From an uncultured Eubacteriales bacterium (GTDB lineage Bacteria > Bacillota > Sulfobacillia > Fermentithermobacillales > Fermentithermobacillaceae), in the NCBI GenBank assembly GCA_964641455.1, contig CAZXLH010000009.1:1534-65533 (forward strand): a stretch of 64,000 bases of DNA, given 5' to 3'. Of this stretch, positions 7,227 to 60,271 are shown piece after piece. The notes under the pieces are model-generated. The model was not told the origin of the DNA. It was given only the letters and a program-made list of their open reading frames with translations, and did no database searches. Positions within the stretch are counted from its first letter, which is position 1. The number at the start of each line of letters is the position of its first letter. The position numbers and the translations under genes were made by a program.

Positions 7227-8507
7227 TCAAGGCATAAGGTGAATTATGGAAATAAGGGCGAGTATGTACACCAACCAATGAATTTCTTTGGCTTTTCCGG
7301 AAAGAGCTTTAACAACTACGTAGCTGATAAAGCCTGCCGAAATCCCATCTGATATCGAAAATGCAAAAGGCATCATTGCTATGGTCATAAAAGCCGGGAA
7401 AGCCTCGGAAAAATCGGACCAGTCAATGTCTTTTACAGGAAGCATCATAAGCACCCCTACGATAATGAGTGCAGGAGCCGTAGCTTCAGTAGGAATCATA
7501 CCTGCAAGAGGTGAAAAAACCAAAGATACGAGAAACAGGATCCCAATTACAACTGCAGTAAGCCCTGTTCTTCCGCCTTCAGCAATTCCGGCACTTGATT
7601 CTACATAAGTAGTTACAGTACTTGTACCAAGCGCCGCGCCCAGGCAAGTACCTATAGCATCAACGGTCATCATTTCCTTAATTCTTGGAAGTTGCCCTTT
7701 TTCATCAAGCATATTGGCTCTTGAAGCAGTGCCCATAAGGGTGCCTACCGTATCGAAAACGTCTACAAACCAGAAACTGAAAATGGTCATAAATCCTAGG
7801 CTAATAGCTCCCTTAATGTCCAGTTTAAAAGCGATAGGTGCCAAAGATGCAGGTTTTCCCACGATACTTCCTGCAATTTGCGTAACTCCCATGGGAATTC
7901 CTATTACGGTGGTTATCAGAATGCCCAAAAGAATAGATCCTCGAACATTCCTAGCCATAAGTATTGCAGTTATCAAGAGCCCTATTAAAGCAAGAGCAGG
8001 TCCCGGAGCCGCAAGATTACCTCTGGCAACTATGGTAGCCGGATCACTCTGGATAATACCCGCGTTTTTTACACCGATAAACGCGATAAACAGTCCAATT
8101 CCTACTCCTACTGCACGTTTCAGTGTTTTGGGAATGGCAGCATCAAGAATATTTATGGCCCCTGTCAAAGCCAGAACCAAAAATAACACACCTGACAGAA
8201 AAACAACACCAAGGGCAGCCTGCCATCCTACTTGTTCTGCCACTACAAAAGCAAAAAACGCGTTAAGCCCCATTCCGCTGGCTAAAGCATAAGGATAATT
8301 TGCTATAAGCCCTGCAAGAATTGTGGTGATACCTGCAGACAAAGCGGTTGCAGTCATTACAGCCCCAAAAGGCATACCGGTTGCACTCAAGATGTCGGGA
8401 TTAACAAAAATGATATAAGCCATAGTCATGAAAGTAGTAATACCGGCTACTATTTCAGTGCGTACATCGGTACCATTTTCTTTTAGTTTGAACCAACGTT
8501 CTAGCAA
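7227..8507 (-). CDS. pbuG: AzgA/PbuG-family (NCS2) hypoxanthine/guanine permease
   Basis: 426 aa; N-terminus FKLKENGTDVRTEIVAGITTFMTMAYIIFVNP typical of the AzgA family; about 12 TM helices. Confidence 0.8.
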   Translation of the reverse strand: MLERWFKLKENGTDVRTEIVAGITTFMTMAYIIFVNPDILSATGMPFGAVMTATALSAGITTILAGLIANYPYALASGMGLNAFFAFVVAEQVGWQAALGVVFLSGVLFLVLALTGAINILDAAIPKTLKRAVGVGIGLFIAFIGVKNAGIIQSDPATIVARGNLAAPGPALALIGLLITAILMARNVRGSILLGILITTVIGIPMGVTQIAGSIVGKPASLAPIAFKLDIKGAISLGFMTIFSFWFVDVFDTVGTLMGTASRANMLDEKGQLPRIKEMMTVDAIGTCLGAALGTSTVTTYVESSAGIAEGGRTGLTAVVIGILFLVSLVFSPLAGMIPTEATAPALIIVGVLMMLPVKDIDWSDFSEAFPAFMTIAMMPFAFSISDGISAGFISYVVVKALSGKAKEIHWLVYILALISIIHLMP

Positions 8508-8548
8508 GAGTTGCCTCCTCCTTCATATAGACCGATTGTAAAATCCAC

Positions 8549-9085
8549 CTATTTCTTGTCAGGGTTCTCAAGTACACCAACATAGGGCAAGCCCCGATAT
8601 TTTTGTGCATAGTCCAAACCATATCCGACGACAAAAGCATTGGGAATTATGAAACCGTAATAATCCAGGCTGACTCTCACTCTCCTTCTGGCAGGTTTAT
8701 CCAGTAACGCACAAACCTTGAGGCTGGCGGGTTGTCTGTTTCTTAGTGTGTCCAGAAGATATCTTAGAGTTAATCCTGTATCGACAATATCTTCAACCAA
8801 AAGCACATGCCGGCCGGCTACGCTCTGTTCCAGATCTTTGGTTATCCTTACTTCTCCAGACGACTTTGTTGATGCTCCGTAACTTACAGTTCCCATGAAA
8901 TCAACAGCTACATCACATTTTAAGTGCCTAATAAGATCTGCCATGAATACAAAACTGCCTTTTAACACACCAACCATAAGAAGCTCCGTATTGGCATAAT
9001 CCCTTGAAATTTCCGAGGCCAGCTCCTTAATTCGTTTGTCTATCTCTTGCTTGCTTATGAGTACTTTGATTCCGTCTTCTTGCAC
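8549..9085 (-). CDS. hpt: hypoxanthine-guanine phosphoribosyltransferase
   Basis: PRPP-binding motif VLLVEDIVDTGLTL. Start is probably GTG (VQEDGIKVLIS) with strong GAGGGGGG RBS 7 nt upstream; the upstream TTG start of the listed ORF has no RBS. Confidence 0.85.
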   Translation of the reverse strand: MQEDGIKVLISKQEIDKRIKELASEISRDYANTELLMVGVLKGSFVFMADLIRHLKCDVAVDFMGTVSYGASTKSSGEVRITKDLEQSVAGRHVLLVEDIVDTGLTLRYLLDTLRNRQPASLKVCALLDKPARRRVRVSLDYYGFIIPNAFVVGYGLDYAQKYRGLPYVGVLENPDKK

Positions 9086-9161
9086 AATTTCACCCCCCTC
9101 GCACACTTCCGTGTTCAATTTAACACTTCAATTTAGATTATGCAATAACAAATATAACAAT

Positions 9162-9186
9162 AGTTGAATTGTCAAACAATTCAACT
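9162..9186. promoter_or_regulatory. perfect 10-5-10 palindrome AGTTGAATTG-TCAAA-CAATTCAACT in the hpt / pspC divergent intergenic region
   Basis: Read directly from sequence; candidate dimeric repressor operator between divergently oriented genes. Confidence 0.4.
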
Positions 9187-9288
9187 GCCAACTTGTTTTT
9201 AATACCTAATGGTTAAGTGCAATTAAGTGTTACTATTCATGTAGGTTTGCGTATTACTTATTGTAAAATGCATAAAGGAGGAACGAGC

Positions 9289-9483
9289 TTGTCTAAAAAA
9301 TTGTACCGCTCAAAAACCAAAAGAATGGTATCAGGTGTATGCGGAGGGCTTGGAGAGTATTTCGATATAGATGAAACCATATTCCGCCTCGGTGTAGCCT
9401 TCATCACGTGTATAACAGCCATAATTCCAGGAGTTTTATTTTACCTGGCAGCATCTATCATAATACCTGAAAGCCCTGAATGA
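9289..9483 (+). CDS. PspC-domain small membrane protein
   Basis: TTG start after AAGGAGG plus 7-nt spacer gives MSKKLYRSKTKRMVSGVCGGLGEYFDIDETIFRLGVAF... (64 aa), the canonical PspC-domain N-terminus followed by a TM helix. The listed ORF start at 9217 is likely too long. Confidence 0.7.
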   Translation: MSKKLYRSKTKRMVSGVCGGLGEYFDIDETIFRLGVAFITCITAIIPGVLFYLAASIIIPESPE

Positions 9484-9529
9484 AAAACCCAAAGCAATTG
9501 CAGAACATTCGAAGTTGAGCCCGGCAACT

Positions 9530-9808
9530 TCAGTCAATAAGTTGTCCGGCAATAACAAAACACATTAGCATAATGATATCGAAGGCAGCAGCGATGTAAA
9601 CATTGCTCCCGCCTTTTACAGCCCAGGCCCAACTTCCAAAAAAGCAAGTTAAATATATAATGCTAAGCCACCTATTTATTTTCCTGTGTCTTTGCCAAAC
9701 AGCCATCTTCTCATCCCACGACATTTGCTCCCATTGGGGAGCCTCCCATATAGGAGGCTTCAGCCTAAGCCACCTTCTCAGTTCCCAAAGCCAACCATCA
9801 GGTTTCAA
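9530..9808 (-). CDS. small hypothetical membrane protein (Trp/Arg-rich N-terminus, 2 TM helices)
   Basis: 92-aa ORF whose start overlaps the stop of the upstream 469-aa gene by 11 nt, i.e. co-operonic; no recognisable family. Confidence 0.4.
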   Translation of the reverse strand: MKPDGWLWELRRWLRLKPPIWEAPQWEQMSWDEKMAVWQRHRKINRWLSIIYLTCFFGSWAWAVKGGSNVYIAAAFDIIMLMCFVIAGQLID

Positions 9809-11207
9809 AACGAAACACCTCTAGATTAGCCTGAGGAACGGTTACCAGGCGCCCATCACCAAGCCTAACCTTGGCAACTTCAACTACAGCCTCACATTCT
9901 ATTTGCTCTGGCTTATCCGGTACATGCTCCACTGTACCCCACAAGCCAAAATATGGCGGCCTGGTGCACCTTACCCTATCTCCTTGATTCACCTGCGCCA
10001 GCATCGCCACAGGCAAACCGCTTGCCTCATCAGACACTAACGATATCGCCGGGCTTTTATGTGCAGCTTCCAAGTCCTCAATTTGGCTGCATATGATAAC
10101 CTCAGGCCTTACTACTCCTGCCCTTATTTGAGTGGTACCGTCAATGGAAGCAATTCTTCCTTCATTACCTGCAAGTATGTTCCATGCTTCACGGCTCATG
10201 GAAATCTTGCCGAAACCTTCGAGAAGAATAATTGTGAAATCTATATCCTCCTGGCCTGTTAGCCCCACATTGATTTCTTTGCCAAGAATACGAACCAAAT
10301 CAAGTTGGTTCATGCCTCCGGTAATCAGGCCCAAAGCGCCTTTTTCTATGGCTTCCTGCACCGATTCAAATGAAGCGAAACTACCACATGCCAGGATCTT
10401 GCCCTCGACACTCTCATCTAACCTGTCATGTCTAAGGGGTTCTTCCGGAGTGTCAGATAATATCATCAATTCGCCAAAGCGTTCACGGCCAATTCCAAAT
10501 ACGCCTTGAATATACGCTCCTTCCGAATCAATCACAGCACCATAATGATCAATGATTTCGCTGACTTTCCCGGATACGTGAGCAAGTACATCGGTATGCC
10601 TTATGGGTCTTACTATTGTAATAGTGCCTGTAAGAGTACAGATCCTCTCGACAATTCCGCTAATAGGCGCATAGACAAAGTCTGTGTGCCATCCGGTTGT
10701 GGCAATAATCTTACCTTCGTAGACAAAGTCACCTTCCCTAACCGTAGTATACATTCTTAAAAAGCGGGGCCGTACTCCCAATTTAGAAGCAGCCGCTACA
10801 ATACTCATTGGTTTTGCCGAACGTGGATCTTCACGTATTACAATTCGGCCCTGGGTTCTGGAAATATATTCAATGACCCCATCACACGGAGATCTAACTT
10901 CTATGATTTCAGACCAAAAGTTTTTCTGGTATCTGGCTAATACTTCACCGGATTTAACAACATCACCTTGCTCTTTAATTAATACTTGGTCGACAAGCTC
11001 AGGCTCTGTCCTTTGCTTGAGTTCCGCCCTCAAATCTACAACATATGGGTTTCCCTTAACAAACTCGGCTTTTGCAATTACAGTGTCAGGGGAAACCACA
11101 TCGCCTTCTTGAACCAAAACCTCACCCGGAGTGGGCAGTTTCCGCTCTTTGCGAATAGTTGCCCTCTCTAATACCTTAAGTGTGGATAGCAAAGCCATCA
11201 TTGTCAC
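9798..11207 (-). CDS. hypothetical protein, partner of GlmL/MutL-like ATPase (possible N-terminal barrel-sandwich hybrid-like segments, KOW-like C-terminus)
   Basis: 469 aa; 5-nt gap from the upstream MutL-like gene; no family recognised by eye; segments GEVLVQEGDVVSPDTVIAKAE and GDVVKSGEVLARYQ resemble biotinyl/lipoyl hybrid motifs. Confidence 0.5.
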   Translation of the reverse strand: MTMMALLSTLKVLERATIRKERKLPTPGEVLVQEGDVVSPDTVIAKAEFVKGNPYVVDLRAELKQRTEPELVDQVLIKEQGDVVKSGEVLARYQKNFWSEIIEVRSPCDGVIEYISRTQGRIVIREDPRSAKPMSIVAAASKLGVRPRFLRMYTTVREGDFVYEGKIIATTGWHTDFVYAPISGIVERICTLTGTITIVRPIRHTDVLAHVSGKVSEIIDHYGAVIDSEGAYIQGVFGIGRERFGELMILSDTPEEPLRHDRLDESVEGKILACGSFASFESVQEAIEKGALGLITGGMNQLDLVRILGKEINVGLTGQEDIDFTIILLEGFGKISMSREAWNILAGNEGRIASIDGTTQIRAGVVRPEVIICSQIEDLEAAHKSPAISLVSDEASGLPVAMLAQVNQGDRVRCTRPPYFGLWGTVEHVPDKPEQIECEAVVEVAKVRLGDGRLVTVPQANLEVFRFET

Positions 11208-11211
11208 CTCC

Positions 11212-13002
11212 TCATAGATTCTTTTTTAAGATACTTGACGGATAGGCGTCAAGGGCCTCGTACCAGCCGATAAGAGATGATCTCATAACGCTCTTGTCAC
11301 CGAAAAATACAAGGGGCCTTCCTCGTCCATCTAAAATCAACCCTGTTACACCCTTAACAAGTTTGCCTGAAATAGGTTTTCCAGGCCCAAAACCCAGATC
11401 GAATCGCCTGTCAGGGACAGCTTCAAATGCAGTATCTCCCAGATCATCTACATCCACTATCTGCAAATCGCCTGCGACAATATCGAAACTGTTATTTCCG
11501 GCTGTGACCCGGCCGATAGACGTACCCGGCGGAACCTCAGGCCCTACCGGTGCGATACAAGTTCCAAGGGGAATTAAAGTTTCTGTTTCCATGATCTCTA
11601 CAGCTGCATCCTTGTCAATGTCCATAAGCACACCCATATAGGGCAGCAAAAATCGGCTATCGACAAACAAGCCGGTAATCCCTTCAGGCTGCAGCCCATC
11701 CAAAAGTATCATGGCTGCCTGATTGCGCCTGGGTGCATATGAAAGCACTCCGCCTGTGCCAACCAACACCTTAACCTTCATCATGTCTACAAGTGTTTGG
11801 CCTGAAGCATCTTGGTAAAATATATCTCCTGCACTGCGCTGTTGCTGAACTCCCTTGAGCCCACGTATAAGCGACTTGTGATGTTCAAGTGAAAGCCTTA
11901 ACGCTTCTTTGCACAGTGCCTGCTCTAGCATAAGTTCCTCAAAAGTCTGCGGCAAACCTGCAGGCCTTATCATCTTGTTGAAGTTCCAGTTCCTCACAAA
12001 ATTTTCATCAGAGTCAAACGGCAACCACCTTAGCACAAGTTCAGGAGTAGCTTCGCTTAAAACATTTCCCATACTGTAAGACATTCCAAGATTTGCCGAG
12101 ACGGTTCGATAGAACTTGGAATCTATCACTGAAAATACGTCTGTGGTAGCTCCGCCTACGTCAACAGCCAAAACATCGCCTTGAACTTTTTGTGCCAGGT
12201 AAATTAATGCATCGCCAACAGCTACGGGAGTAGGTTTCACATTGCCCTGGGCCCAGGACAGCACTGTGTTGTAACCCGGAGCATGCATCATTACATGCTC
12301 CAAAAACAAGTTATGGATCTGGTTTCTTGCAGGGCCAAGCACTTCTTTTTCAAGTACCGGCCTTATATTTTCAGCAAACGAAACTTCCATTGCTCCTTCG
12401 AAAAGCTTATCAACCAGGCTCCTGGCTTCAACATTGCCTGCAAAAATTACAGGCATCTTGAACTCCTTGCCAAACCTAGGTTGAGGATTGGCCATAGCCA
12501 CCATTTCAGCTACAGCGGCAACTTCTGAAATATTGCCATCGTCAGTGCCGCCTGTAATCAGAACCATGTCAGGCCTTATACGCTTAACTGCATCTATCTT
12601 CTCAATTACACTTCGGGGATCATCAAGGGCAATGACATCAGATACAATTGCCCCGGCACCCAATGCAGCTCTATGGGCTGATTCAGCAGTAATTTCTTCC
12701 ATTAGGCCGGTCACTACCATTTGCAGCCCGCCACCGGCGCTTGAAGTAACAACAAAAACGTCTACACCTGACTTTTGATGTGCAGGAGTTACCAAATGCG
12801 CTCCATCCAAGATTTTTACATCTGTTTGACTCTGCAGTTTTAAAAGGGCATTTCTAAGCCCAATCATTACGTCCAAATGTGGGGTTTCAACAGTTGTGGG
12901 AGATACAGCTTTCGCCTGCAAAACCCAACCTTGCTCTTGCTTCTCAAACAGCACTGTCTTGGTGGTAGTGCTACCTATATCTGCAGCAAGAATTCTATAC
13001 AC
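11212..13002 (-). CDS. GlmL/MutL-family (glutamate-mutase-reactivase-like, ASKHA fold) ATPase with about 130-aa C-terminal extension
   Basis: 596 aa; DIGSTTTK, SSAGGGLQMVV, ITGGTDDGN, PVIFAGNVEAR and DVGGATTDV align with the OraF-like paralog at 37987-39336 (EIGSTTT, SSAAGGLSMSV, LAGGVDYGE, PVIYAGNVAAR, DVGGATVDV). Confidence 0.6.
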   Translation of the reverse strand: MYRILAADIGSTTTKTVLFEKQEQGWVLQAKAVSPTTVETPHLDVMIGLRNALLKLQSQTDVKILDGAHLVTPAHQKSGVDVFVVTSSAGGGLQMVVTGLMEEITAESAHRAALGAGAIVSDVIALDDPRSVIEKIDAVKRIRPDMVLITGGTDDGNISEVAAVAEMVAMANPQPRFGKEFKMPVIFAGNVEARSLVDKLFEGAMEVSFAENIRPVLEKEVLGPARNQIHNLFLEHVMMHAPGYNTVLSWAQGNVKPTPVAVGDALIYLAQKVQGDVLAVDVGGATTDVFSVIDSKFYRTVSANLGMSYSMGNVLSEATPELVLRWLPFDSDENFVRNWNFNKMIRPAGLPQTFEELMLEQALCKEALRLSLEHHKSLIRGLKGVQQQRSAGDIFYQDASGQTLVDMMKVKVLVGTGGVLSYAPRRNQAAMILLDGLQPEGITGLFVDSRFLLPYMGVLMDIDKDAAVEIMETETLIPLGTCIAPVGPEVPPGTSIGRVTAGNNSFDIVAGDLQIVDVDDLGDTAFEAVPDRRFDLGFGPGKPISGKLVKGVTGLILDGRGRPLVFFGDKSVMRSSLIGWYEALDAYPSSILKKNL

Positions 13003-19687: not shown

Positions 19688-19792
19688 ATTGAGTTGTCCC
19701 ATTGAGTTGTCTAATTGAATTGCTTCAATTTAATGGCCCACATTATCAACTTTGCACCTTTGTGCAACTTAGCAATTTAGCAACTTAGCACC
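19688..19792. repeat. cheA-cheD intergenic repeat cluster: tandem ATTGAGTTGTC x2, inverted repeat AATTGAA-TTGC-TTCAATT, palindrome TTGCACCTTTGTGCAA, tandem GCAACTTAGCAA-type units
   Basis: Read directly from sequence in an otherwise gene-dense operon (138-bp gap). Confidence 0.5.
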
Positions 19793-19809: not shown

Positions 19810-22032
19810 TCAAAGCAAACGGTTTATATCAAGGATTACAGCAGGGTCACCTTCCGGGAGGATTGTAGCTCCTGCAATGCCCTTTAACCGTGAAAGAATT
19901 CTACCCATTTCTTTTACAACAATTTCCTCTTCGCCAATTAAGCCATCGACTCCCAGCGCTAACGGTTCTTCGTCACTGCGAGTAAGCACTGCGTAACGAA
20001 ACCGCCCGTTGTTTAGCCACGGATCATCTTTCAGGCAACCTTCTAACGAAACCAAAGGAAAAATTGTTCCCCTAACAGTAAGGGCGGCCTTTCCTTTGAT
20101 AGTTTGGATTCTGTCTTGGTTCACCACTATCACTTGTTCAACTGATGACGTTGGTATTGCATATACGATCCCTGAGCAATCAACCAAAAGAGCCCGCATA
20201 ATGGCAAGGGTCAGGGGCAACCGCAAAGTTACCGACGTTCCCATACCAACCACGCTTCGCACTTCTATATGCCCGTTAATTCGTTCTAGGTTTGAACGAA
20301 CAACGTCCATGCCTACACCCCTGCCTGATACTTGAGTAGCCACTTGCGATGTGGAAAACCCGGGCATGAAAATCAATTCAACAGCTTCTCTTCTAGATAA
20401 TTTACCTGCAGCTTCCTGAGTAATCAGCCCTTTTCGAATTGCAGATTGTTTTACGTTTTCAGGATCGATTCCAGACCCATCGTCCCTAACTTGAACCAAA
20501 ACCTGATTCTCCTGGTACCACGCGGAAAGCGTTATTTTCCCTCTCTCCGGTTTGCCCTTTGCTCTCCTTTCTTCAGGCATTTCTATTCCATGGTCAACTG
20601 CATTGCGCAAAATATGTATCAAAGGGTCGTCTATGGCTTCAAGCACAGTCCTATCTAACTCAGTATCTTCACCGTCAGTCTCTAAGTCGATTTTTTTACC
20701 GCAACGATTTGAAAGATCTCTTATCATCCTGGGAAACTTGGTAAATATATTATTTAAAGGCAACAACCTTGCTCTCATAATACCTTCTTGAAGTTCCTGT
20801 GACGTTCTTTGAAGATGAGATGAGAGTGCCGCAAGTTCATTGCCAACAACTACAGTTTCGTCTCTTGCTTGCAATCTCGCAGCTATTTGCGTAAGCCTGG
20901 TTCTGTCGATCACAAGTTCCCCAACCATATTGAGCAAGAAATCCAAAAGGCTTACGTCTACCCTTACAGTTCGGCCTAAATTGGTTTTTCTCACCACTGT
21001 TTCCGAAGAAGGCGGCGTTCTTGTTTCGTGAGTACGTTGCTTTGGCCCCGGCCGTTCTGGTTTGCATGGTTTATCCGGCAGGCCTGATTGATCCGGTTGC
21101 TCCGGAGGGCAGGGTTGGCTTGACCGGCCCAATTGCTTCGATTGGCCTGGTTGGTACGGCGCAAGTTGCTCCAAGCCGGTCTTATCATACGACGTAACCG
21201 TAACCTGAACCACATCCTGAATATTCCCTACAACGGTTTTTGCTTCCATACCTCCGTCATCACATGTAACATAAATGTAAAGCACATCACTTGCTACGTC
21301 AGATTCCACTTCCTCAAGAGATGGAACCGAACCAACCACTTCCGCCACTTCATTTATAAGAATCAGAGCTTGAAAACACCTTACGGAAAGCAGATCAGTT
21401 GATGAGCTAAATTTAACCGTAAGCTTGTGGACAGGTTTACCTTGATCCAAGTACTCGTGGAGTTTTTTAGTCAAGTAGGTATCCAAACCCTTGCATGCAT
21501 TTTCTGAAGCAGATTCACTTCGAACTCTGTCTTTATCCTTATCTTCGCCCTGGCCTTGGGTTTTATCTTTGCCTTCTTCGTCTTTTACTTCTTGTTCATC
21601 TTCGGCTTCTTCTTCGTCTTTGCCTTCGCCTTTCGATTGGCTTGAGCGAAACTCGTTAATCTGCCTCATTACCTCTTGTGTAGACGGCCTTTCACCCTGT
21701 GCATCCAATGCATCCTTCCACTCTTCCAGCCAATCAAGCACTGCAAACAACACATCAACCATTTCAGACGTAAGTTCCTCGCTACCTGATCTAACATTTT
21801 CAAGAATACTCTCCATGATATGAGTGACTTCCACTCCGTCTTGAAGCCCCAAAGTGGCCGCTCCACCTTTGATAGTGTGCATAGCCCTAAAAACTTCCTG
21901 AATAAGAGCATTGTCAGACGGACACTTCTCAAGTTCAACCAAGTTTTCTTCAGTATTACCAAGAAGTTCGTCTACTTCAGCAAGAAATATATGAAAATCT
22001 TCTTCAAATTCAATTGAATTGTGCTCGTTCAT
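19810..22032 (-). CDS. cheA: chemotaxis histidine kinase CheA
   Basis: 740 aa; HPt domain with AMHTIKGGAA, HATPase_c, C-terminal CheW-like domain; unusually long acidic/Lys-rich and Pro/Gln-rich linker segments. Confidence 0.9.
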   Translation of the reverse strand: MNEHNSIEFEEDFHIFLAEVDELLGNTEENLVELEKCPSDNALIQEVFRAMHTIKGGAATLGLQDGVEVTHIMESILENVRSGSEELTSEMVDVLFAVLDWLEEWKDALDAQGERPSTQEVMRQINEFRSSQSKGEGKDEEEAEDEQEVKDEEGKDKTQGQGEDKDKDRVRSESASENACKGLDTYLTKKLHEYLDQGKPVHKLTVKFSSSTDLLSVRCFQALILINEVAEVVGSVPSLEEVESDVASDVLYIYVTCDDGGMEAKTVVGNIQDVVQVTVTSYDKTGLEQLAPYQPGQSKQLGRSSQPCPPEQPDQSGLPDKPCKPERPGPKQRTHETRTPPSSETVVRKTNLGRTVRVDVSLLDFLLNMVGELVIDRTRLTQIAARLQARDETVVVGNELAALSSHLQRTSQELQEGIMRARLLPLNNIFTKFPRMIRDLSNRCGKKIDLETDGEDTELDRTVLEAIDDPLIHILRNAVDHGIEMPEERRAKGKPERGKITLSAWYQENQVLVQVRDDGSGIDPENVKQSAIRKGLITQEAAGKLSRREAVELIFMPGFSTSQVATQVSGRGVGMDVVRSNLERINGHIEVRSVVGMGTSVTLRLPLTLAIMRALLVDCSGIVYAIPTSSVEQVIVVNQDRIQTIKGKAALTVRGTIFPLVSLEGCLKDDPWLNNGRFRYAVLTRSDEEPLALGVDGLIGEEEIVVKEMGRILSRLKGIAGATILPEGDPAVILDINRLL

Positions 22033-23056: not shown

Positions 23057-24763
23057 CTAAGAATCAAGAGTATCATGGATTACTTCCCAGATATCCTCAG
23101 TTTCAAACCCCCGCCGCCAGGCGGCCACTCCTGCCAAACCGTATTGGTTGACCAGTTGCACTCGTTTCTTCATTGATTCAACATCTTCCAACCATACTTT
23201 GAAGGTATCGCTGCCAATCTTTTTCTCTGCATATAATAACCCTGTATCAGGTTGGTACTTTGGAGTTACATTCTCATTTTTAAGCCAACGCGCTATGCCT
23301 TCCATGCCCAAGGCCCTGGGGGCCACTTTGGCTTGGCTGTTTTCACGAGTCTCTTGCCATAACCGTGTATAGAAAGGAACCCCTAACACAAGTTTCTCAG
23401 GGGGCACCTCTTCAAGAGTCTTCTTGACAGTCCATTCTGCCCACGGGATAGCCGATACAGGCCCTGCTACTTTAGAACCGTAAGGATACTGATCATATGC
23501 CATAAGCATCACATAATCCACCACCTGGGCAAGTTTGTCCCGTTCCAGGAACAGAGACCAATTCGGGCTGGTAGATTTAACGGTAATGTCAATAGATACG
23601 GTAAGCCCTTGCCCGTGTAGCATTGGAACCAACTCACGTACAAATTGAGTGAGGTAACGGCCGTCAGCAAGATTTACGTTTTCAAAATCTATATTAATAC
23701 CGTCAAGTTTGTATATCTTAGCGTATATGAGCAGTTGAGAAATAATCTTGTCCCTTAAATCTGAGTCTCTAAGCACCACGGAAGTCCTCGAAGGATCGAA
23801 TGAATTGGAAAACAACGCCCATACTTGATACCCCCGTGAATGAGCCCAGTTCACATAACGCATATCAGCACGGTTTTCCAGTTCACCGGGAGTACCTGCA
23901 AGGTGAAACCATGTTGGCGAAACAACGTTTAACCCGGGCATTTTGCCTATTCCAGCAGGGTCAGGAGTAACAGTATCGACCTGTTCCCATACCAGAACCA
24001 CCTTATTGCCTTCTAGAGGGCTGGGAACATATTCAGAAGGCTCTTTGATAACAGGAGGCTCTTCTCTTACACCTGTTACCAGCCTCTTAGGAACGAAACC
24101 ACAAAACCCCTGCTTGGTTTCGACTTTCAACCACCGCCCTGTTTCTCCATAAATAACTACCTGGTCACCTGTTGACAGTTTGCGAACTCTGCGAGAAAGC
24201 AACGACGCCCTTACCCTTAGAATGGTATCGGCGCTGACCTCGCCAATCTTGTTAGGAGTATCCAATCTTTGCACCGAAAATATTCCAACCTCTTGGTTAT
24301 GGGTTGTTGATACAGGATATAGTGTTTCTAATGTGCTTGCAGGAACATAGGGTTGATTTCCTTCAAGGATCACAGGAAACTGTAAACTCACTGAGTGCTG
24401 ATTCACATATGCAGTAAGTGAATCCTTACTGAGTTTCACTACCTTATCTTTCGTGGTTACAATCATCATACCGCTTTCGTCCCAAAACACGTGCGGATCA
24501 AGTGTATCTTTTATGAATTTCATAGGCACATAGGCTTCCCCTTCTTCTATCACTACCGGAAACCTTTGCGCTTCACCGCAGTAAACCATCTGTGGACGGC
24601 TTGTATGAGAATATTCAACATATTGAAAAGAAGGATAGATCGTAATAGTAATGAACGCAAATATTGCTGCTAAGATAACAATCCAGTTAAATCCAGGGCC
24701 TGGGCTGTATACTTTTTTGGTTTTTCTGGCTCTTCCAGGCGGAATGCTTGCATTGAAACTCAT
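23057..24763 (-). CDS. GH18 (chitinase-like) domain protein with N-terminal TM, Cu-amine-oxidase-N-like repeats and SH3b domain; YaaH/YdhD-like cortex/peptidoglycan hydrolase
   Basis: 568 aa; DGINIDFE (GH18 DxxDxDxE catalytic motif); SH3_3-like GDQVVIYGETGRWLKVETKQGFCGFVP; YVPMKFIKDTL / PYVPASTLETL stalk repeats. Confidence 0.65.
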   Translation of the reverse strand: MSFNASIPPGRARKTKKVYSPGPGFNWIVILAAIFAFITITIYPSFQYVEYSHTSRPQMVYCGEAQRFPVVIEEGEAYVPMKFIKDTLDPHVFWDESGMMIVTTKDKVVKLSKDSLTAYVNQHSVSLQFPVILEGNQPYVPASTLETLYPVSTTHNQEVGIFSVQRLDTPNKIGEVSADTILRVRASLLSRRVRKLSTGDQVVIYGETGRWLKVETKQGFCGFVPKRLVTGVREEPPVIKEPSEYVPSPLEGNKVVLVWEQVDTVTPDPAGIGKMPGLNVVSPTWFHLAGTPGELENRADMRYVNWAHSRGYQVWALFSNSFDPSRTSVVLRDSDLRDKIISQLLIYAKIYKLDGINIDFENVNLADGRYLTQFVRELVPMLHGQGLTVSIDITVKSTSPNWSLFLERDKLAQVVDYVMLMAYDQYPYGSKVAGPVSAIPWAEWTVKKTLEEVPPEKLVLGVPFYTRLWQETRENSQAKVAPRALGMEGIARWLKNENVTPKYQPDTGLLYAEKKIGSDTFKVWLEDVESMKKRVQLVNQYGLAGVAAWRRGFETEDIWEVIHDTLDS

Positions 24764-24801
24764 TTCTGTTAGTGACCCAACCTTTCAAAAGGGAAGTTAC
24801 G

Positions 24802-24952
24802 TGTTTCGGCATTTGCACACTTAGGTATTTGAGTATTTCAAATCATGGGCCCAGAGTTGTGAACCCCATTCACATTTCGGCATTTGCATGTTTCGGTATT
24901 TACATGTCCCGGTATTATATGTTTTGATATTTACCTGTTTCGATATTTCGAC
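24802..24952. repeat. iteron-like array: about 16-bp unit GTTTCGGYATTTRCAT, one copy at 24802 and five tandem copies at 24871-24952
   Basis: Read directly from sequence; related CGGCATTTCC/CACATTTCC copies recur at 26521-26555 on the other side of the adjacent gene. Confidence 0.55.
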
Positions 24953-25040
24953 GCGATGGGGCTTTGTGTCCTGCTTGTTTACGACTATGTTTATGGAAGC
25001 GGAGGCATAACCTGGGGGGGCGGTTAGCGGTGTTGATGCG

Positions 25041-25240
25041 AACCTGTAGCCTAGGATTACAACTCAGCACACTACTATCATCTGGGAATACATCTCAACA
25101 CTGAAACTGTAGCCTGAGACGACACTTCAACCCGTAACTGTCATCTGCAATTACACTTCAACCCGCAACTGTCATCTGCAATTACACTTCAACCCGCAAC
25201 CATCATCTGGGGGTACAACTTGACATAAACCTGTAGTCCG
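25041..25240. repeat. tandem 31-bp repeat ACACTTCAACCCG(T/C)AACTGTCATCTGCAATT x3 (25121-25212), flanked by three AAC(C/A)TGTAGCC copies and two ATCATCTGGG copies
   Basis: Read directly from sequence. Confidence 0.55.
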
Positions 25241-25273
25241 GTAAAACAATTCCTCGCATAATATGAACACCGG

Positions 25274-25302
25274 TTGACATACTTTCCCAGATTGTGGATA
25301 AT
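25274..25302 (+). promoter_or_regulatory. sigma-70-type promoter TTGACA-17 nt-(TG)GATAAT about 110 bp upstream of the 25411 start
   Basis: Consensus -35 at 25274-25279, TGn-extended -10 at 25295-25302. Confidence 0.45.
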
Positions 25303-25410
25303 TAAGCTACAATACTACACATTCCTTACCAGAGTTATCAATTGTATTGTCGTGCATTGTCGAAATTCAAGGATATAACGTGCAAACTATATTATCTGAA
25401 GGTGGTGGAT

Positions 25411-26190
25411 ATGAAAAATTCAATAATTCTCCCTGAGATGCTACTAGATGAAGAACTTATTCCCCCGCTTGCCAAACTACTGTATGTCATAACACAAATC
25501 TATCATCCTTCCTCTATTACAGACCTAGCAAGGCAGAGTGGAATTAGCCGGCCGGCAGTGTCCAATCTGTGTAATATCCTTGCCGGCCATGGATGGATCG
25601 TCAAAGCCAAGCAAGGTTCGAGAACAGTCCCTGTACCAGCCATACCTCACCCTGTTCAAGAGCAAATGGTCAAAGACCTATACACAGGTTACAACGCAAG
25701 CCGATTAAAAGGTGAATACCTGGTAAAAACGTGGCTAAACCGCTTGGTGCTTACAGATGAATACATAGACAATGCCCGGCCTTCGTTCCTGCAAAACCCT
25801 CTTACCGGAGAACTGATGGAACTGGATAGGTTTATGCCAACTCTAAATGCAGGAATTGAGTACCATGGCCCTCAACACTTCGCGCCTACCAAAGCATTTC
25901 CGGATACAGCCCAATTCAAAAAAAGAAGAGCGCGAGACCTAATGAAACGATCATTGTGTGATGAAAATAACATTACACTGATTATTGTGACGGCAGAAGA
26001 TCTCAGCCTCCAAGGCATGTTAAGCAAACTTCCTAAAGACTTTCCTATTAGGCAAGTCGATGTTGGCGGGCCTTATATCAAGGCTTTGCAATCGTTATCT
26101 GCAGAATACAGGGCGGGGCTAACAAGAGCCATTGCCCGGGAAGCCAGGGAACAGGAATATCGCAATCGGCTCCGTCAATCCAACGTCTGA
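25411..26190 (+). CDS. winged-helix (MarR/ArsR-like) DNA-binding domain fused to a Vsr/DUF559-like PD-(D/E)xK endonuclease-fold domain
   Basis: ATG at 25411 preceded by GGTGGTGG RBS (listed ORF start 25342 likely too long). HTH: SITDLARQSGISRPAVSNLCNILAGHGWI. C-terminus ELDRFMPTLNAGIEYHGPQHF...KRRARDLMKRSLCDENNITLIIV matches the DUF559 pattern (yivDF...vEvDGxqH...RDxxL...GxxVlRf) with D-to-H substitution. Confidence 0.5.
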   Translation: MKNSIILPEMLLDEELIPPLAKLLYVITQIYHPSSITDLARQSGISRPAVSNLCNILAGHGWIVKAKQGSRTVPVPAIPHPVQEQMVKDLYTGYNASRLKGEYLVKTWLNRLVLTDEYIDNARPSFLQNPLTGELMELDRFMPTLNAGIEYHGPQHFAPTKAFPDTAQFKKRRARDLMKRSLCDENNITLIIVTAEDLSLQGMLSKLPKDFPIRQVDVGGPYIKALQSLSAEYRAGLTRAIAREAREQEYRNRLRQSNV

Positions 26191-26708
26191 TCACATTGCA
26201 CCATCAGTTTCTTATATTCTGCCCACTGAGGTATGCAGCCAAAAAAACAGACGCTCACGTTCCGAACGTCTATCTGGGCTCAAAGTATGCATCAAATGTC
26301 CTACCGTAAGGGAATACAGGCCTTGTAGCACTCCACGACCAAGGGTGATCCAGCATAAACGCTATACCGGACTTGGTTCTTGTCGAGTTCAAGTCGACGT
26401 CGAATCCTGATTCACTTGTACCTGTAGTACCTACCTATCTCCAATCTATATCCAAAGGTTGATTTATCTATCTATCTGTATCCACCTGTATCTAGCTTAC
26501 AATCAACATTTTTACCTTACAGCCCACATTTCCGATCTTACAGTCGGCATTTCCAACAAATCAGCCGGAAAGCGCTATCCGGCACTGCGTGATAACCCTG
26601 CCGGGCCCGATTGCTTCCCGTTCGTGATGCAATCGGGCCTTTCCATTAATTCTTACGTTCGGGGCTGGCGGGGATGGATAAAGATTCCAGCCGATATGGG
26701 TTAAACGC

Positions 26709-27710
26709 CTAACCCAAAACTTCCTTATAAACCCTTAGCCAATTGCCGCCTAAAACTTTCTTAACTTCTTCTTCTGTATATCCGCGGTTCAACAGTTCTT
26801 CTGTAAGCCTCGGCATCTCAGATACATCCTTCATAACCTGAGAACTTCCGGGAGATACCCCAAACCCGTCAAAATCAGAACCAAGGCCCACATGGTCTAT
26901 GCCGGCAATCTTCTTTATGTGATCGATATGATCACAAAGCCTGGATAGGGAAACGTTCTCCTTATCATCAACAAATAAAGGGCAGAAAACAACACCAATT
27001 ACGCCACCCTTTGCCGCCAACGCTTCTATTTGCTTATCTGTAAGGTTCCGGGGGTGCGAAGCCAGTGCCCTTACGTTTGAATGGGAAGCAATATAAGGCC
27101 TTTCTGCTACCTCATCAACTCCCCAAAAACTTGTTTCAGACAGGTGAGATACATCTACAAGCATTCCAAGCCGTTCCATTTCCTTGACTACCGAAATACC
27201 AAAATCAGTAAGCCCTGACTTAGCAGACTTTTCTCCTACACCATCAGCTATGTCGTTCCTTTGGTTCCAGGTTAACCCCATTGCCCTTACGCCTAACCTG
27301 TAGAAACTCCTCAATAACGACAAGCTGCCTTCAATAGCTTCGCCGCCTTCAATACTAAGAAGCCCACAGACTTGATCCCCGCTTTTAACGTCGATAATAT
27401 CTTGCGCACTTGTGGCGAGAGTAAAATCTGCAGAATCTTCAAGCAGGCTGTAGAACCCATCCAAAAGTTCTAAACATCTCCTGGCTGAGCGCGTTGGTTT
27501 ATACTGAGGCTCAATATATAATGCCATAACCTGACATGTAACTCCGCCTTCTTTCAGCCTTGGAAGATCGATATGCCCTGTTTCGCTTCTTTCAAAAAAA
27601 TCACGCTGTTTATATGAAGAATAATGCCTACGTCCCATGACCGACAGCATCGTGTCACAATGGCCGTCAATTATAACCGCTTCTTGATGAATTCTGGAAG
27701 CATCTGACAA
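26709..27710 (-). CDS. membrane dipeptidase, peptidase family M19
   Basis: 333 aa; VIIDGHCDTM and GLGSDFDG motifs of renal-dipeptidase-like enzymes. Confidence 0.8.
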   Translation of the reverse strand: MSDASRIHQEAVIIDGHCDTMLSVMGRRHYSSYKQRDFFERSETGHIDLPRLKEGGVTCQVMALYIEPQYKPTRSARRCLELLDGFYSLLEDSADFTLATSAQDIIDVKSGDQVCGLLSIEGGEAIEGSLSLLRSFYRLGVRAMGLTWNQRNDIADGVGEKSAKSGLTDFGISVVKEMERLGMLVDVSHLSETSFWGVDEVAERPYIASHSNVRALASHPRNLTDKQIEALAAKGGVIGVVFCPLFVDDKENVSLSRLCDHIDHIKKIAGIDHVGLGSDFDGFGVSPGSSQVMKDVSEMPRLTEELLNRGYTEEEVKKVLGGNWLRVYKEVLG

Positions 27711-52045: not shown

Positions 52046-52057
52046 TGTTTGCCTCCC

Positions 52058-52450
52058 TCACACTCTTCGTCGCTTTGGTGGGCGGCATCCGTTATGTGGT
52101 ACAGGAGTAACATCCTTGATGAGGGTAACTTCAAGGCCGGCAGCCTGTAACGCACGTATGGCCGCCTCTCTCCCGGCACCCGGCCCCTTGACACGAACCT
52201 CTACTTCTCTCATGCCAACATCAATAGCCTGCTTAGCTGCAACTTCCGCTGCTGTTTGCGCAGCAAAAGGAGTGCTCTTTCTGGACCCTTTGAAGCCCTG
52301 TTCTCCTGCTGATGACCAAGATACCGCTCCGCCCTGGGTATCGGTTATGCTAACCATTGTGTTATTGAAAGTCGATCTTATATGAGCAATGCCCTTTTCA
52401 ACAACACGCCGTTCTCTCCTTCTTCTAACCCTTTGCTTCCTTCTAGCCAA
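52058..52450 (-). CDS. rpsK: 30S ribosomal protein S11
   Basis: [18 protein letters not shown]. Confidence 0.93.
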
Positions 52451-52472
52451 AGCTTATCTACCCTCCCCGACG

Positions 52473-52844
52473 TCATCTCTTCCGTCTGATTCCAACTGTC
52501 TTCTTGGGGCCTTTTCTTGTACGAGCATTGGTCTGAGTCCTCTGCCCTCTCACAGGCAGGCCCCGTCTATGACGCAGTCCTCTGTATGTCCCAAGATCAA
52601 TTAGTCTTTTTATATTAAGCTGCTCTTCAGTTCTGAGATCACCTTCGACTTTGTAGTTCTTATCAATAAAGTCTCTAATACGGGCAATTTCTTCTTCTGT
52701 AAGATCTCTTACACGCGTATCAGGGCTAACTCCGGTAGCATCAAGTATCTGTTTTGCCCGGGTTCGCCCGATACCGTAAATATACGGAAGGGCAGCTTCT
52801 AATTTCTTATCTCTAGGTAAATCAACACCTGCTATACGAGCCAT
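52473..52844 (-). CDS. rpsM: 30S ribosomal protein S13
   Basis: [26 protein letters not shown]. Confidence 0.93.
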
Positions 52845-52860
52845 AAGATTTCACCCCCGT

Positions 52861-52974
52861 TCAACCCTGTCTCTGTTTGTGCTTCGGATTCGGGCAAACC
52901 ACTACAACTTTGCCGTGTCTTCTGATAATCCGGCACTTTTCGCATATTTTCTTCACTGAAGGCCTCACCTTCAC
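52861..52974 (-). CDS. rpmJ: 50S ribosomal protein L36
   Basis: Not in the ORF track (under 60 aa). Minus-strand GTG after GAAGGGGG RBS translates to [37 protein letters not shown], stop TGA at 52861-52863. Confidence 0.85.
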
Positions 52975-53012
52975 ATGAATAACCCCCTTCAAAAGGAAGA
53001 GATCCCTTGTCC

Positions 53013-53231
53013 TTATCTCAGACGCCGGACAATTCTGCCGCGGGTTAGGTCGTAAGGGCTTAACTCAACAAGTACTCTGTCTCCGGCAAGAATCTTAATA
53101 AAATTGATTCTCATCTTCCCGGAAATGTGCGCCAGTACCTGATGTCCACCTTCAACCTCTACCCGAAACATGGCATTGGGAAGTGGCTCTGTTACTCTGC
53201 CCTCGACCTCAATGCTGTCTTGCTTCGGCAT
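53013..53231 (-). CDS. infA: translation initiation factor IF-1
   Basis: [41 protein letters not shown]...; 72 aa from ATG with GAGGAGG RBS. Confidence 0.92.
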
Positions 53232-53278
53232 GCTATTCCTCCTCATTTATAACAAAAGTGTATCCTAAAATTGCCAAT

Positions 53279-59077: not shown

Positions 59078-59389
59078 TCACTTGTCAATTGCTTCGCCAC
59101 ATTTCCGACAAACTCTGACTTTCTTATCATCCGATACCTTAAATCCAACCCTTACGGGCCTGGAACACTTGGGGCATAAAAGCATCACAGCTGACCTGTG
59201 TATAGGGCCCTCCCTCTCAATAATGCCGCCTTGCGGCAAATCCTGGGTGGGCTTTTGATGCCGTTTATGCAAGTTCACCCGTTCAACAATCACACGGTTT
59301 TCTGAAGGCATAGCTCTTAAAACTTTGCCTTTTGCCCCTTTGTACTTGCCACTTATGACCAGAACCGTATCACCCTTACGAATATTCAC
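59078..59389 (-). CDS. rplX: 50S ribosomal protein L24
   Basis: [23 protein letters not shown]; KOW. Confidence 0.92.
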
Positions 59390-59411
59390 TCAACCCACCA
59401 CCTTCCAGGCG

Positions 59412-59780
59412 CTAAATAACTTCGGGAGCTAAAGATATAATCTTTGTAAAACGCTTTTCTCGAAGTTCTCGTGCCACAGGCCCGAAAATCCGTGTGCCTT
59501 GAGGCTCTGTTTCATCTTTGAGAATTACAGCAGCGTTATCATCAAATTTGATGTACGTGCCGTCAGGGCGGCGAACATTTCTGTTTGTTCTGACTATGAC
59601 CGCTCTCACTACCTGCCCCTTCTTAACAACGCCTCCAGGCGTGGCCTCTTTTATCGAAGCAACGATGCTATCACCCAAGCAGGCATAGCGCCTAAAACCG
59701 CTCCCAAGGATCTTAATGCACATAATTTCTTTTGCACCTGTATTATCTGCTACCTTCAACCTGCTCTGTGGCTGAATCAA
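59412..59780 (-). CDS. rplN: 50S ribosomal protein L14
   Basis: [26 protein letters not shown]. Confidence 0.93.
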
Positions 59781-60055
59781 GTCCGGTCACCCCCTGCCAG
59801 GCTCTTGGACTTCTCGATCACTTCGGAGATTCTCCACCGTTTGTGCTTCGATAAAGGCCTTGTTTCTACAAGCCTTACTTTATCTCCAACAACGGTACTG
59901 TTATCTGCGTCATGAGCCTGTATCTTTCGGGTTGATTTAAACCTCTTTTTGTAAAGTGAGTCCACTTTCCACCTTTCAACGGCTACAACCCGAGTCTTAT
60001 CCATTTTGTCGCTTACAACGACTCCAATTAGTTGTTTACGTTTGCCACGTTCCAT
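59777..60055 (-). CDS. rpsQ: 30S ribosomal protein S17
   Basis: [23 protein letters not shown]. Confidence 0.92.
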
Positions 60056-60058
60056 ACC

Positions 60059-60271
60059 TTAACCCTCCTGGGCAAGCATTCCAAGTTCTCTCTGGCGCTG
60101 AATGGTTTTCACCCGCGCTATGGACCGCTTAACCTCGCGTATACGCATCACATTGTCCAGCTGCCCTGTAGCCAGCTGAAAGCGCAGGTTAAACAGTTCA
60201 TCTTTGAGATCCGAAAGCTTGTTGTCTAAATCCTTGTCGCTCATCTTCCTAATTTCCTGCGCTTTCATCAT
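60059..60271 (-). CDS. rpmC: 50S ribosomal protein L29
   Basis: [31 protein letters not shown]. Confidence 0.9.

Follow-up and report, generated by a model that had tools for sequence, protein, structure and literature searches.

A chromosomal single-gene cassette with a predicted winged-helix/EDxHD-type nuclease and adjacent tandem repeats in Fermentithermobacillaceae

The closest described relatives of the protein considered here are the EDxHD homing endonucleases, such as I-Bth0305I and the phage Hef-type enzymes, and the Vsr repair endonuclease. The EDxHD set of I-Bth0305I consists of E170, D196, N208, H213 and D222, which correspond to E25, D51, H64, H69 and D97 of Vsr, and EDxHD enzymes have a further acidic residue, likewise conserved, where Vsr has F62 (PMC3239194). 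These homing endonucleases reside in an intron or intein, or stand free in a phage genome, and carry NUMOD repeats. The DUF559 and DUF2726 families, both uncharacterised, belong to the same fold class, and fusions of a winged helix (AbiEi_4-type) with DUF559 are common in Actinobacteria. Here we describe a gene of this general kind in a 64,000-nucleotide stretch of DNA (the window) from an uncultured Eubacteriales bacterium of the Fermentithermobacillaceae, where it occupies the interval 24764-26708 between a GH18 gene and an M19 dipeptidase gene. Its protein joins a winged helix to a predicted Vsr/EDxHD-type nuclease. The reading we favour, and to which we give roughly an even chance, is that the centre of the interval is an old insertion of a free-standing homing-endonuclease-type cassette whose repeat arrays would be its own binding sites.

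The protein is built from two modules. Residues 8-76 (25432-25638) form the winged helix and residues 97-205 (25699-26025) form the nuclease core, which includes E102, D139, E150, H152, H156, D176 and K179; a long basic helix at residues 221-258 follows at the C-terminus. The core has a Vsr-like alpha/beta nuclease fold. Searches with the single protein and with two profiles gave no sequence match to solved structures, and the fold comparison alone succeeded. Foldseek against viral models (BFVD) returned 105 matches, the named ones being mostly homing or restriction endonucleases and a few DUF559 or DUF2726 proteins. Sequence-profile matches agree with the fold result, with residues 133-217 matching the PHROG families 'homing endonuclease' (E-value 1.8e-13), 'HNH endonuclease' (7.6e-13) and 'intron encoded nuclease'. 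The EDxHD motif is present as E102, D139, H152, H156 and D176, together with E150, where the residues are mapped by motif order and not by residue-level superposition. A first-pass annotation of the window had described H152 as a histidine replacing a conserved aspartate. This is a misreading, since H152 occupies the variable 'x' of EDxHD, which is His64 in Vsr; the position holds H, N, Q or M in the family and N, Q, H or D in the viral relatives. In 19 family members E137, D139, R140, E150, G153, Q155, H156, T160, D176 and K179 are invariant and G101 and E102 nearly so. Inclusion of 25 viral relatives of the core leaves D139, E150, G153, Q155, H156, D176 and K179 invariant. The two modules evolve differently: mean pairwise identity is 36% for the winged helix and 55% for the nuclease core, and the exposed positions of the recognition helix vary even among close orthologs. 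The alignments thus define a two-module design, in which a variable winged helix is joined to a conserved, predicted Vsr/EDxHD-type nuclease with a complete catalytic set.

The comparison with described enzymes shows both likeness and difference. The N-terminus is a winged helix of MarR/IclR/ArsR type, which is duplicated in the long family forms of 300-450 aa, and NUMOD-type DNA-binding repeats were not found there. The gene stands free between bacterial chromosomal genes and lies neither in an intron or intein nor in a phage genome. Unlike the EDxHD homing endonucleases it has been inherited vertically over genus-level divergence, and it has an adjacent tandem array, for which we found no description in those enzymes. 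Vsr differs in other respects: the protein studied here lacks a zinc site motif and has an added sequence-recognition domain, no Dcm methyltransferase gene lies beside its gene, and there are many paralogs per genome. The fusion had been annotated as a MarR-like helix-turn-helix with a Vsr/DUF559-type nuclease. The winged helix and the Vsr-type nuclease stand, but DUF559 (PF04480) gave no match, and DUF2726 (PF10881) reached 12.2-13.1 bits against a Pfam gathering cut-off of 24.7, with weak matches in 8 of 17 members (best E-value 0.006). A similar 'E-x-[DNHQ]-G-x-Q-H ... R-D' motif is shared with both families, and the DUF559 fusions are also alike in their winged-helix plus nuclease architecture and multi-copy distribution; they differ from the present family in phylum. 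We know of no array association for the DUF559 or DUF2726 families.

The winged helix matches the MarR, IclR and ArsR families, and relatives are publicly named 'MarR/ArsR family transcriptional regulator'. The protein could on this ground be a domesticated MarR/IclR-like repressor or activator, acting through the repeats on the divergent GH18 gene or on other targets and using its nuclease fold for dimerisation or effector binding. WhiA/DUF199 proteins are regulators derived from homing endonucleases (PMC3239194). They resemble the present family as a homing-endonuclease scaffold with a helix-turn-helix that is retained on Gram-positive chromosomes. However, WhiA is derived from a LAGLIDADG enzyme and has lost its catalytic residues, which are invariant here. 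The MarR/IclR matches cover residues 33-66 or about 70 residues only, the remainder being the nuclease fold, and neither MarR dimerisation helices nor an IclR effector domain was found. The sole invariant polar residues are those of the Vsr/EDxHD catalytic set, which are common to the viral homing-endonuclease-type relatives. Divergent orientation from GH18, repeats in the shared spacer and stable co-inheritance with the neighbours all suit a regulator. Against it, the paralogs sit in unrelated gene neighbourhoods without a constant partner, relatives that lack the gene retain both GH18 and M19, and the 16-bp array near GH18 is ancestral DNA outside the cassette. We therefore hold a regulatory role to be distinctly doubtful.

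The interval is an indel relative to sister lineages. The sites in the window, L001-6, L015, L019 and L174 are filled, and four relatives found by a metagenome scan seeded with GH18 (L175, L177, L179 and L181) are empty. In the empty loci the order is FMN-bind, Fdx, M19, a gap of 170-430 bp, GH18, CheW and CheA, with no such gene and no arrays in the gap; their GH18 proteins are 73% (L175, L177) or 59-60% (L179, L181) identical to that of the window. A conserved site therefore exists in filled and empty alleles. The orthologs of the gene are 70-73% identical and lie in the same place, beside GH18, CheW and CheA, whose identities are 75-78%, 77-82% and 64-68%, respectively, while the FMN-binding protein is at 73.5% and M19 at 86%. 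The gene is about as diverged as its neighbours, which indicates an old insertion with vertical inheritance. Recent horizontal transfer was rejected, as this divergence matches that of the neighbours and the base composition of the island does not stand out from that of the window. Since the more distant relatives are empty, a single insertion in one sub-lineage is the simplest history. A decayed mobile insertion had been proposed for the region: the insertion is borne out by the empty sites, but it is not decayed, with an intact gene, invariant catalytic residues and a conserved promoter. The interval is a composite of the GH18 control region, the inserted cassette, the M19 terminator and a genome-specific spacer, with the following features.

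24764-24975: GH18 control region, ancestral DNA upstream of GH18, in which a conserved GTCGAA-type box appears to have been amplified into the 16-bp array.
About 24976-26244, plus strand: inserted single-gene cassette with repeat array, promoter and gene, missing in the four empty relatives.
24803-24818, minus strand: isolated 16-bp unit GTTTCGGCATTTGCAC, with TGCCGAA on the GH18-sense strand (TGNCGAA match at 24805-24811, minus strand).
24875-24948, minus strand: 16-bp tandem array, about 4.3 degenerate copies inside the ancestral GH18 upstream region, from Tandem Repeats Finder (TRF) and a repeat finder.
24947-24973, minus strand: conserved GH18-upstream block CAGGACACAAAG-N-GCGTCGAA, shared by empty-site relatives, where its distance from the GH18 start is equivalent; roughly the left limit of the ancestral spacer.
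25040-25252, plus strand: cassette-borne repeat family, four 60-nt copies including the 31-bp array 25122-25209; candidate winged-helix binding sites.
25274-25302, plus strand: sigma-70-type promoter TTGACA-17-GATAAT, kept in orthologous loci.
25411-26190, plus strand: gene for the 259-aa protein, with orthologs at 70-73% identity.
26245-26275, minus strand: hairpin terminator AAAAAAACAGACGCTCACGTTCCGAACGTCT, homologous to the M19 terminator of the empty sites and L005; right cassette edge.
26276-26708, no strand: extra spacer of about 430 bp, lying after the M19 stop codon and ahead of the ancestral M19 terminator; specific to this genome.

The gene is the one convincing gene, as had been annotated, between the GH18 start (24763, minus strand) and the M19 stop (26709, minus strand), and the window holds no second copy of it within its 64 kb. 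Two conserved elements bracket the junctions and place the cassette limits at about 24976 and 26244. On the GH18 side, the window, L175 and L177 share the block CAGGAYWCAA-N(8-14)-GTCGAA at 155-230 nt upstream of GH18. It occurs once in the 64-kb window (0.00 expected) and among 204 loci otherwise only in L175 and L177; L005 carries a one-base variant. On the M19 side, a hairpin terminator, ACGTTC-loop-GAACGTCT with flanking A and T runs, occurs about 30-45 nt past the M19 stop in the empty sites (L175, L177). The hairpin of this type adjoins M19 in L005 and follows directly after the cassette gene in the window, where it is unique. The point of entry was thus the spacer that runs from the M19 terminator to the GH18 control region, and inheritance of the cassette has been vertical since. 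No conserved small open reading frame (ORF) accompanies the gene in the cassette: L005 has ORFs of 67 and 75 aa, and neither is conserved in the window. The same spacer in a more distant relative (L180 3918-4760) holds a 280-aa ORF, beta-lactamase-like by eye, so that the M19-GH18 spacer seems to be a recurrent insertion point. In the AnMBR.bin277-type relatives (L001 7040-11861) the dipeptidase side is replaced by a giant gene for an SLH-domain protein of more than 1600 aa, which in L001 contains 12.9 near-identical 261-bp coding repeats (8241-11619).

In the cassette of the window, repeats, promoter and gene follow one another on the plus strand. The 31-bp array, already noted in the first-pass annotation, has 2.8 copies with 94% match and a TRF score of 155, which makes it the strongest tandem repeat of the whole window. 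It is nested in the 60-nt repeat family (25040-25224), with start-to-start spacings of 63, 31 and 31 bp and the shared core AACYRTCATCTGS; within the window the exact core is confined to this family. The boxes AACCTGTAGCC and ATCATCTGGG, earlier listed as elements of their own, do exist but are parts of the 60-nt family. The annotated promoter matches 11 of 12 consensus positions and is conserved in orthologous loci (three in all, L001 and L005 among them), while the extended -10 TG that had been included in it was not found by the promoter scanner.

The family to which this gene belongs is large. A word-indexed search found 19 relatives only; an exhaustive profile search raised this to 3054 cluster representatives at E<1e-10, of which 386 reach E<1e-30, and a scan of one genome per species gave 435 coding sites or more. 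The repeat statistics below are based on 80 loci retained from the genome scan. Most of them come from Bacillota metagenome-assembled genomes of Fermentithermobacillaceae, Symbiobacteriaceae and Limnochordia. Several paralogs occur per genome (for instance, 4 of the 80 loci come from one Symbiobacteriaceae bin and 4 from another bin), and they lie in ordinary chromosomal contexts. In viral contigs there are relatives of the nuclease core only, which are small proteins of giant-virus metagenome-assembled genomes and large phages. In two such cases (L095 4857-5354; L096 4734-5282), proteins of 165-182 aa carry an N-terminal hydrophobic segment before the same nuclease core. The segment is probably membrane-spanning, which would be an odd architecture for a homing endonuclease.

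Locus-specific tandem arrays are enriched beside the family genes and are absent from the empty sites. TRF repeats with a period of at least 9 and a score of at least 80 make up 4-8% of the DNA in the 1.5 kb to each side of the gene in the 80 loci, and about 0-1% at distances above 2.5 kb. An array lies within 1 kb of the gene in 39 of the 80. In non-coding DNA alone, 7.1% is covered close to the gene as against 2.0% at greater distance, about a 3.5-fold difference, and gaps of at least 500 bp make up one third of the upstream gaps compared with 10% of other gaps. Array units include 64/32 bp in L025 and 42/84 bp in L029 and L032. The array sequences are specific to each locus and common to orthologs only. 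In L029 the array contains at least 10 copies of GTGCAAAC-N3-GTTGGCAC, an imperfect 19-bp palindrome, at 42-bp spacing, and the array region downstream of the gene contains every one of the 16 GTGCAAA half-sites of the 8.7-kb L029 locus. As an observation apart, a Symbiobacteriaceae contig (L010 12741-12977) has 11.9 copies of a 20-bp unit (GTGCGAAAAGGTGAGGCCCC) about 5.7 kb from a family gene.

In the reading we favour, the winged helix would bind the cassette's own phased 31/63-bp repeats directly upstream of the promoter. The nuclease would thereby be kept on its own cassette, and transcription of the cassette would probably be set or repressed, in the way that iteron or centromere-type arrays act for the proteins that bind them. 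The nuclease would originally have spread the cassette by cutting cassette-free alleles, and it would still be an active enzyme. Several observations weigh against this. The 31-bp unit of the window has no clear palindrome, and no k-mer or motif shared family-wide was found in the arrays. The -35 element and spacer of the promoter match the repeat copy 25080-25099 in inverted orientation at 16 of 20 positions, which by our estimate is the chance level for the 2.2-kb region; an inverted array copy at the promoter was rejected as a general feature as well, the L046 case falling within coding sequence, and the L029 array motif is absent from the L029 promoter. The closest orthologous loci (L001-L003) are without a strong array, array copy number differs between near-identical genomes, and between L029 and L032 the genes share 85-90% identity but the arrays, which are rearranged, 72%. 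A Rayleigh test gave no significant helical phasing of the array periods (p about 0.1). In the protein, residues 152 and 156 are 4 apart, whereas the corresponding spacing in Vsr and I-Bth0305I is 5. Finally, the cassette is fixed in its sub-lineage, which gives no sign of ongoing homing.

That the arrays change more quickly than the genes might also reflect neutral satellite turnover. In this alternative the cassette is again of homing-endonuclease type, but its arrays are neutral, fast-turnover satellites that arise from slippage or from repair of nuclease-induced breaks. The arrays differ between orthologs at 70% protein identity, they diverge faster than the flanking genes, and they share no motif. 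Copy number varies between near-identical genomes, with 7.6 and 9.6 copies of a 62-bp unit in the orthologous loci L005 and L006 and 12.6 and 10.6 copies of a 13-bp unit in L012 and L013. Higher-order periods of 32/64/128 and 42/84/168 are typical of unequal crossing-over. On the other hand, the 19-bp palindromic core of L029 is kept within the array and in its ortholog L032 while the linkers vary freely, and palindromic cores are found in further arrays, for example in L067 and L081. The arrays of L016 and L017 are 90% identical in surrounding DNA that is 79% identical. Also, many arrays on the upstream side stop 80-300 bp short of the start codon, and many on the downstream side start 30-130 bp past the stop codon. 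We consider neutral satellites unlikely, though with an appreciable share of the probability.

A stronger form of the favoured reading is a selfish chromosomal module of a kind not recognised before, in which an active EDxHD-type nuclease is tethered by its winged helix to a centromere-like cognate array. The array would then be a 'DNA antidote' in cis, or landing pad, which keeps the nuclease off the remainder of the chromosome as long as the cassette is present, and loss of the cassette would lead to homing or post-segregational killing. The family would have expanded into several specificity variants per genome in Bacillota of Limnochordia and Symbiobacterium type. Taken jointly, these steps form a speculative proposal that we think improbable.

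Phased direct repeats beside the gene of a presumed binding protein are also a feature of plasmid maintenance systems, namely SopB/sopC of F, ParR/parC of R1 and iteron-Rep systems. In the sopC site of F a 43-bp repeat, which contains a 16-bp inverted repeat, occurs 12 times (PMC3177203), and some arrays of the present family, such as that of L029, are likewise 42-bp units that each contain an inverted repeat. The cassette might thus be a remnant of an integrated plasmid or other replicon, with iterons or a centromere-like site and a Rep- or ParB/ParR-like protein. The order of direct repeats, promoter and DNA-binding gene is that of iteron-Rep and parC-ParR, and the winged helix has a weak match to a PHROG replication initiator (phrog_270, E-value 5e-4). 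There is also one perfect DnaA-box 9-mer, TTATCCACA at 25293-25301 on the minus strand, which overlaps the -10 element of the promoter and is the only perfect one in the window. The orthologs have a degenerate form of it (7 of 9 positions), boxes with one mismatch are as frequent as expected by chance, with 17 DnaA boxes in the window against 16.8 expected, and the overlap is probably coincidental. GC (guanine-cytosine) skew is monotonic across the window, without a switch, and no DnaA-box cluster is present, so the replication origin once suggested for this region falls away. A partition element is contradicted in the same way, as no ParA or ParM gene is found in the window neighbourhood or in the listed loci L001-L013, and there are no Rep or plasmid genes nearby. 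Unlike plasmid maintenance arrays, those of the family are chromosomal and belong to single-gene cassettes without a partner ATPase or replication function. The C-terminal domain is a nuclease with intact catalytic residues and not a Rep or ParB fold, and several paralogs per genome sit in ordinary chromosomal contexts. The replicon explanation is largely refuted, and we leave it the smallest share of belief.

A toxin-antitoxin or anti-phage module, AbiEi-like or type III-like with a repeat-RNA antitoxin, is very unlikely as well. Tandem repeats beside a nuclease recall ToxIN, and some members give AbiEi, Csa3 or CARF-type winged-helix matches in PADLOC. All of these are weak and confined to the winged helix, the AbiEi ones occur in 4 of 19 members, and no AbiEii-type or other partner gene is found, which speaks against the defence or addiction element proposed earlier. 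One Symbiobacteriaceae paralog (L012/L013 7084-10032) lies directly before a gene for a TIR-domain protein and an 838-aa AAA_16/TPR gene, a pair that looks like a defence system. Type III toxin-antitoxin loci have the order promoter, repeats, terminator and toxin. In the present loci, by contrast, a conserved promoter lies between repeats and gene and the arrays can be downstream. Rfam gave no match in 24600-26800 even at E<=1.

The remaining repeats of the interval lie outside the cassette, although all repeats had been taken as one system; the 31/63-bp repeats alone belong to the cassette. The 16-bp units with their isolated upstream copy, as first annotated, are real (4.2-4.3 copies, 73-75% match). 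The array sits in ancestral DNA between the conserved block and GH18 and begins at the GTCGAA box of the block. We read it as a putative lineage-specific tandem amplification of a GTCGAA-type control element of GH18, separate from the cassette. It holds a promoter-like site, TCGAAA-18-TATAAT (24943-24914, minus strand, promoter scan), which faces GH18. The 16-bp units and the GH18-upstream block carry TGCCGAA or GTCGAA boxes on the GH18-sense strand. The core of the Spo0A box is TGTCGAA (PMC3485338), and these boxes hint at possible Spo0A-type control of GH18 through the 16-bp units. This lead stays weak, as TGNCGAA is not enriched in the window (35 matches, 28 expected) or around the family genes. 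The cassette gene has a perfect Spo0A-box core in its 5' untranslated region (25358-25364), which is conserved in neither L001 nor L005.

On the M19 side, the segment 26276-26708 was not found in any relative examined. Further copies of the upstream repeats had been described here, and they are mostly chance: local alignment of the segment with the upstream region scores 20 against 19.6 +/- 2.1 for shuffled sequences, and duplication of the upstream repeats was rejected as its origin. Of these copies only TCGGCATTTCCA at 26544-26555 looks non-random: its pattern is matched 7 times in the window, where 2.05 matches are expected, and 4 of these matches fall in the interval between GH18 and M19. 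CCTGTAG-type boxes are barely above expectation. The segment contains a hairpin with 17-bp arms (26604-26639). The TATC runs earlier called microsatellite-like amount to 1.9 copies of an 11-bp unit (score 35), and the GTCGAC palindromes counted as unusual structure are ordinary 6-mers.

Some other features of the loci were noted in passing. The N-terminal coding region of GH18 in relatives (L001 4878-5000; L015 2734-2910) has short tandem repeats with periods of 6, 12, 18 and 57 bp, and three near-identical contigs have the GH18 start codon placed differently by different gene callers. Just downstream of cheA in the window there are short tandem repeats at 19688-19790 and 21573-21627 (13 bp x 2.7; 8 bp x 3.4), and the acidic low-complexity insert of cheA is encoded by a CTTCTT-type repeat. 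Two stretches of about 1.2 kb each (52046-53278 and 59082-60248) have no ORF of 150 aa or more and no Rfam match at gathering thresholds.

The enzyme class and the bipartite design are already known from I-Bth0305I, Hef and the DUF559 fusions. What appears to be new is a large chromosomal multi-paralog family in these Bacillota, whose present annotation is that of MarR/ArsR regulators, the form of single-gene cassettes that are polymorphic for empty sites, and its consistent association with cassette-borne tandem arrays. We found no description of such a family, cassettes or arrays in the open-access literature, including that on DUF559 with a winged helix or AbiEi. If the favoured reading is true, free-standing genes of homing-endonuclease type would not be confined to phages, introns and inteins, and would have expanded on the chromosomes of poorly studied spore-forming Bacillota. 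The 'MarR/ArsR family regulator' annotations would then have to be re-read as probable nucleases. The family would offer a natural set of matched protein and DNA-site pairs with a swappable recognition domain, which may be useful for studies of specificity evolution and for engineering, and it would provide a testable case of a selfish nuclease that is kept harmless after fixation.

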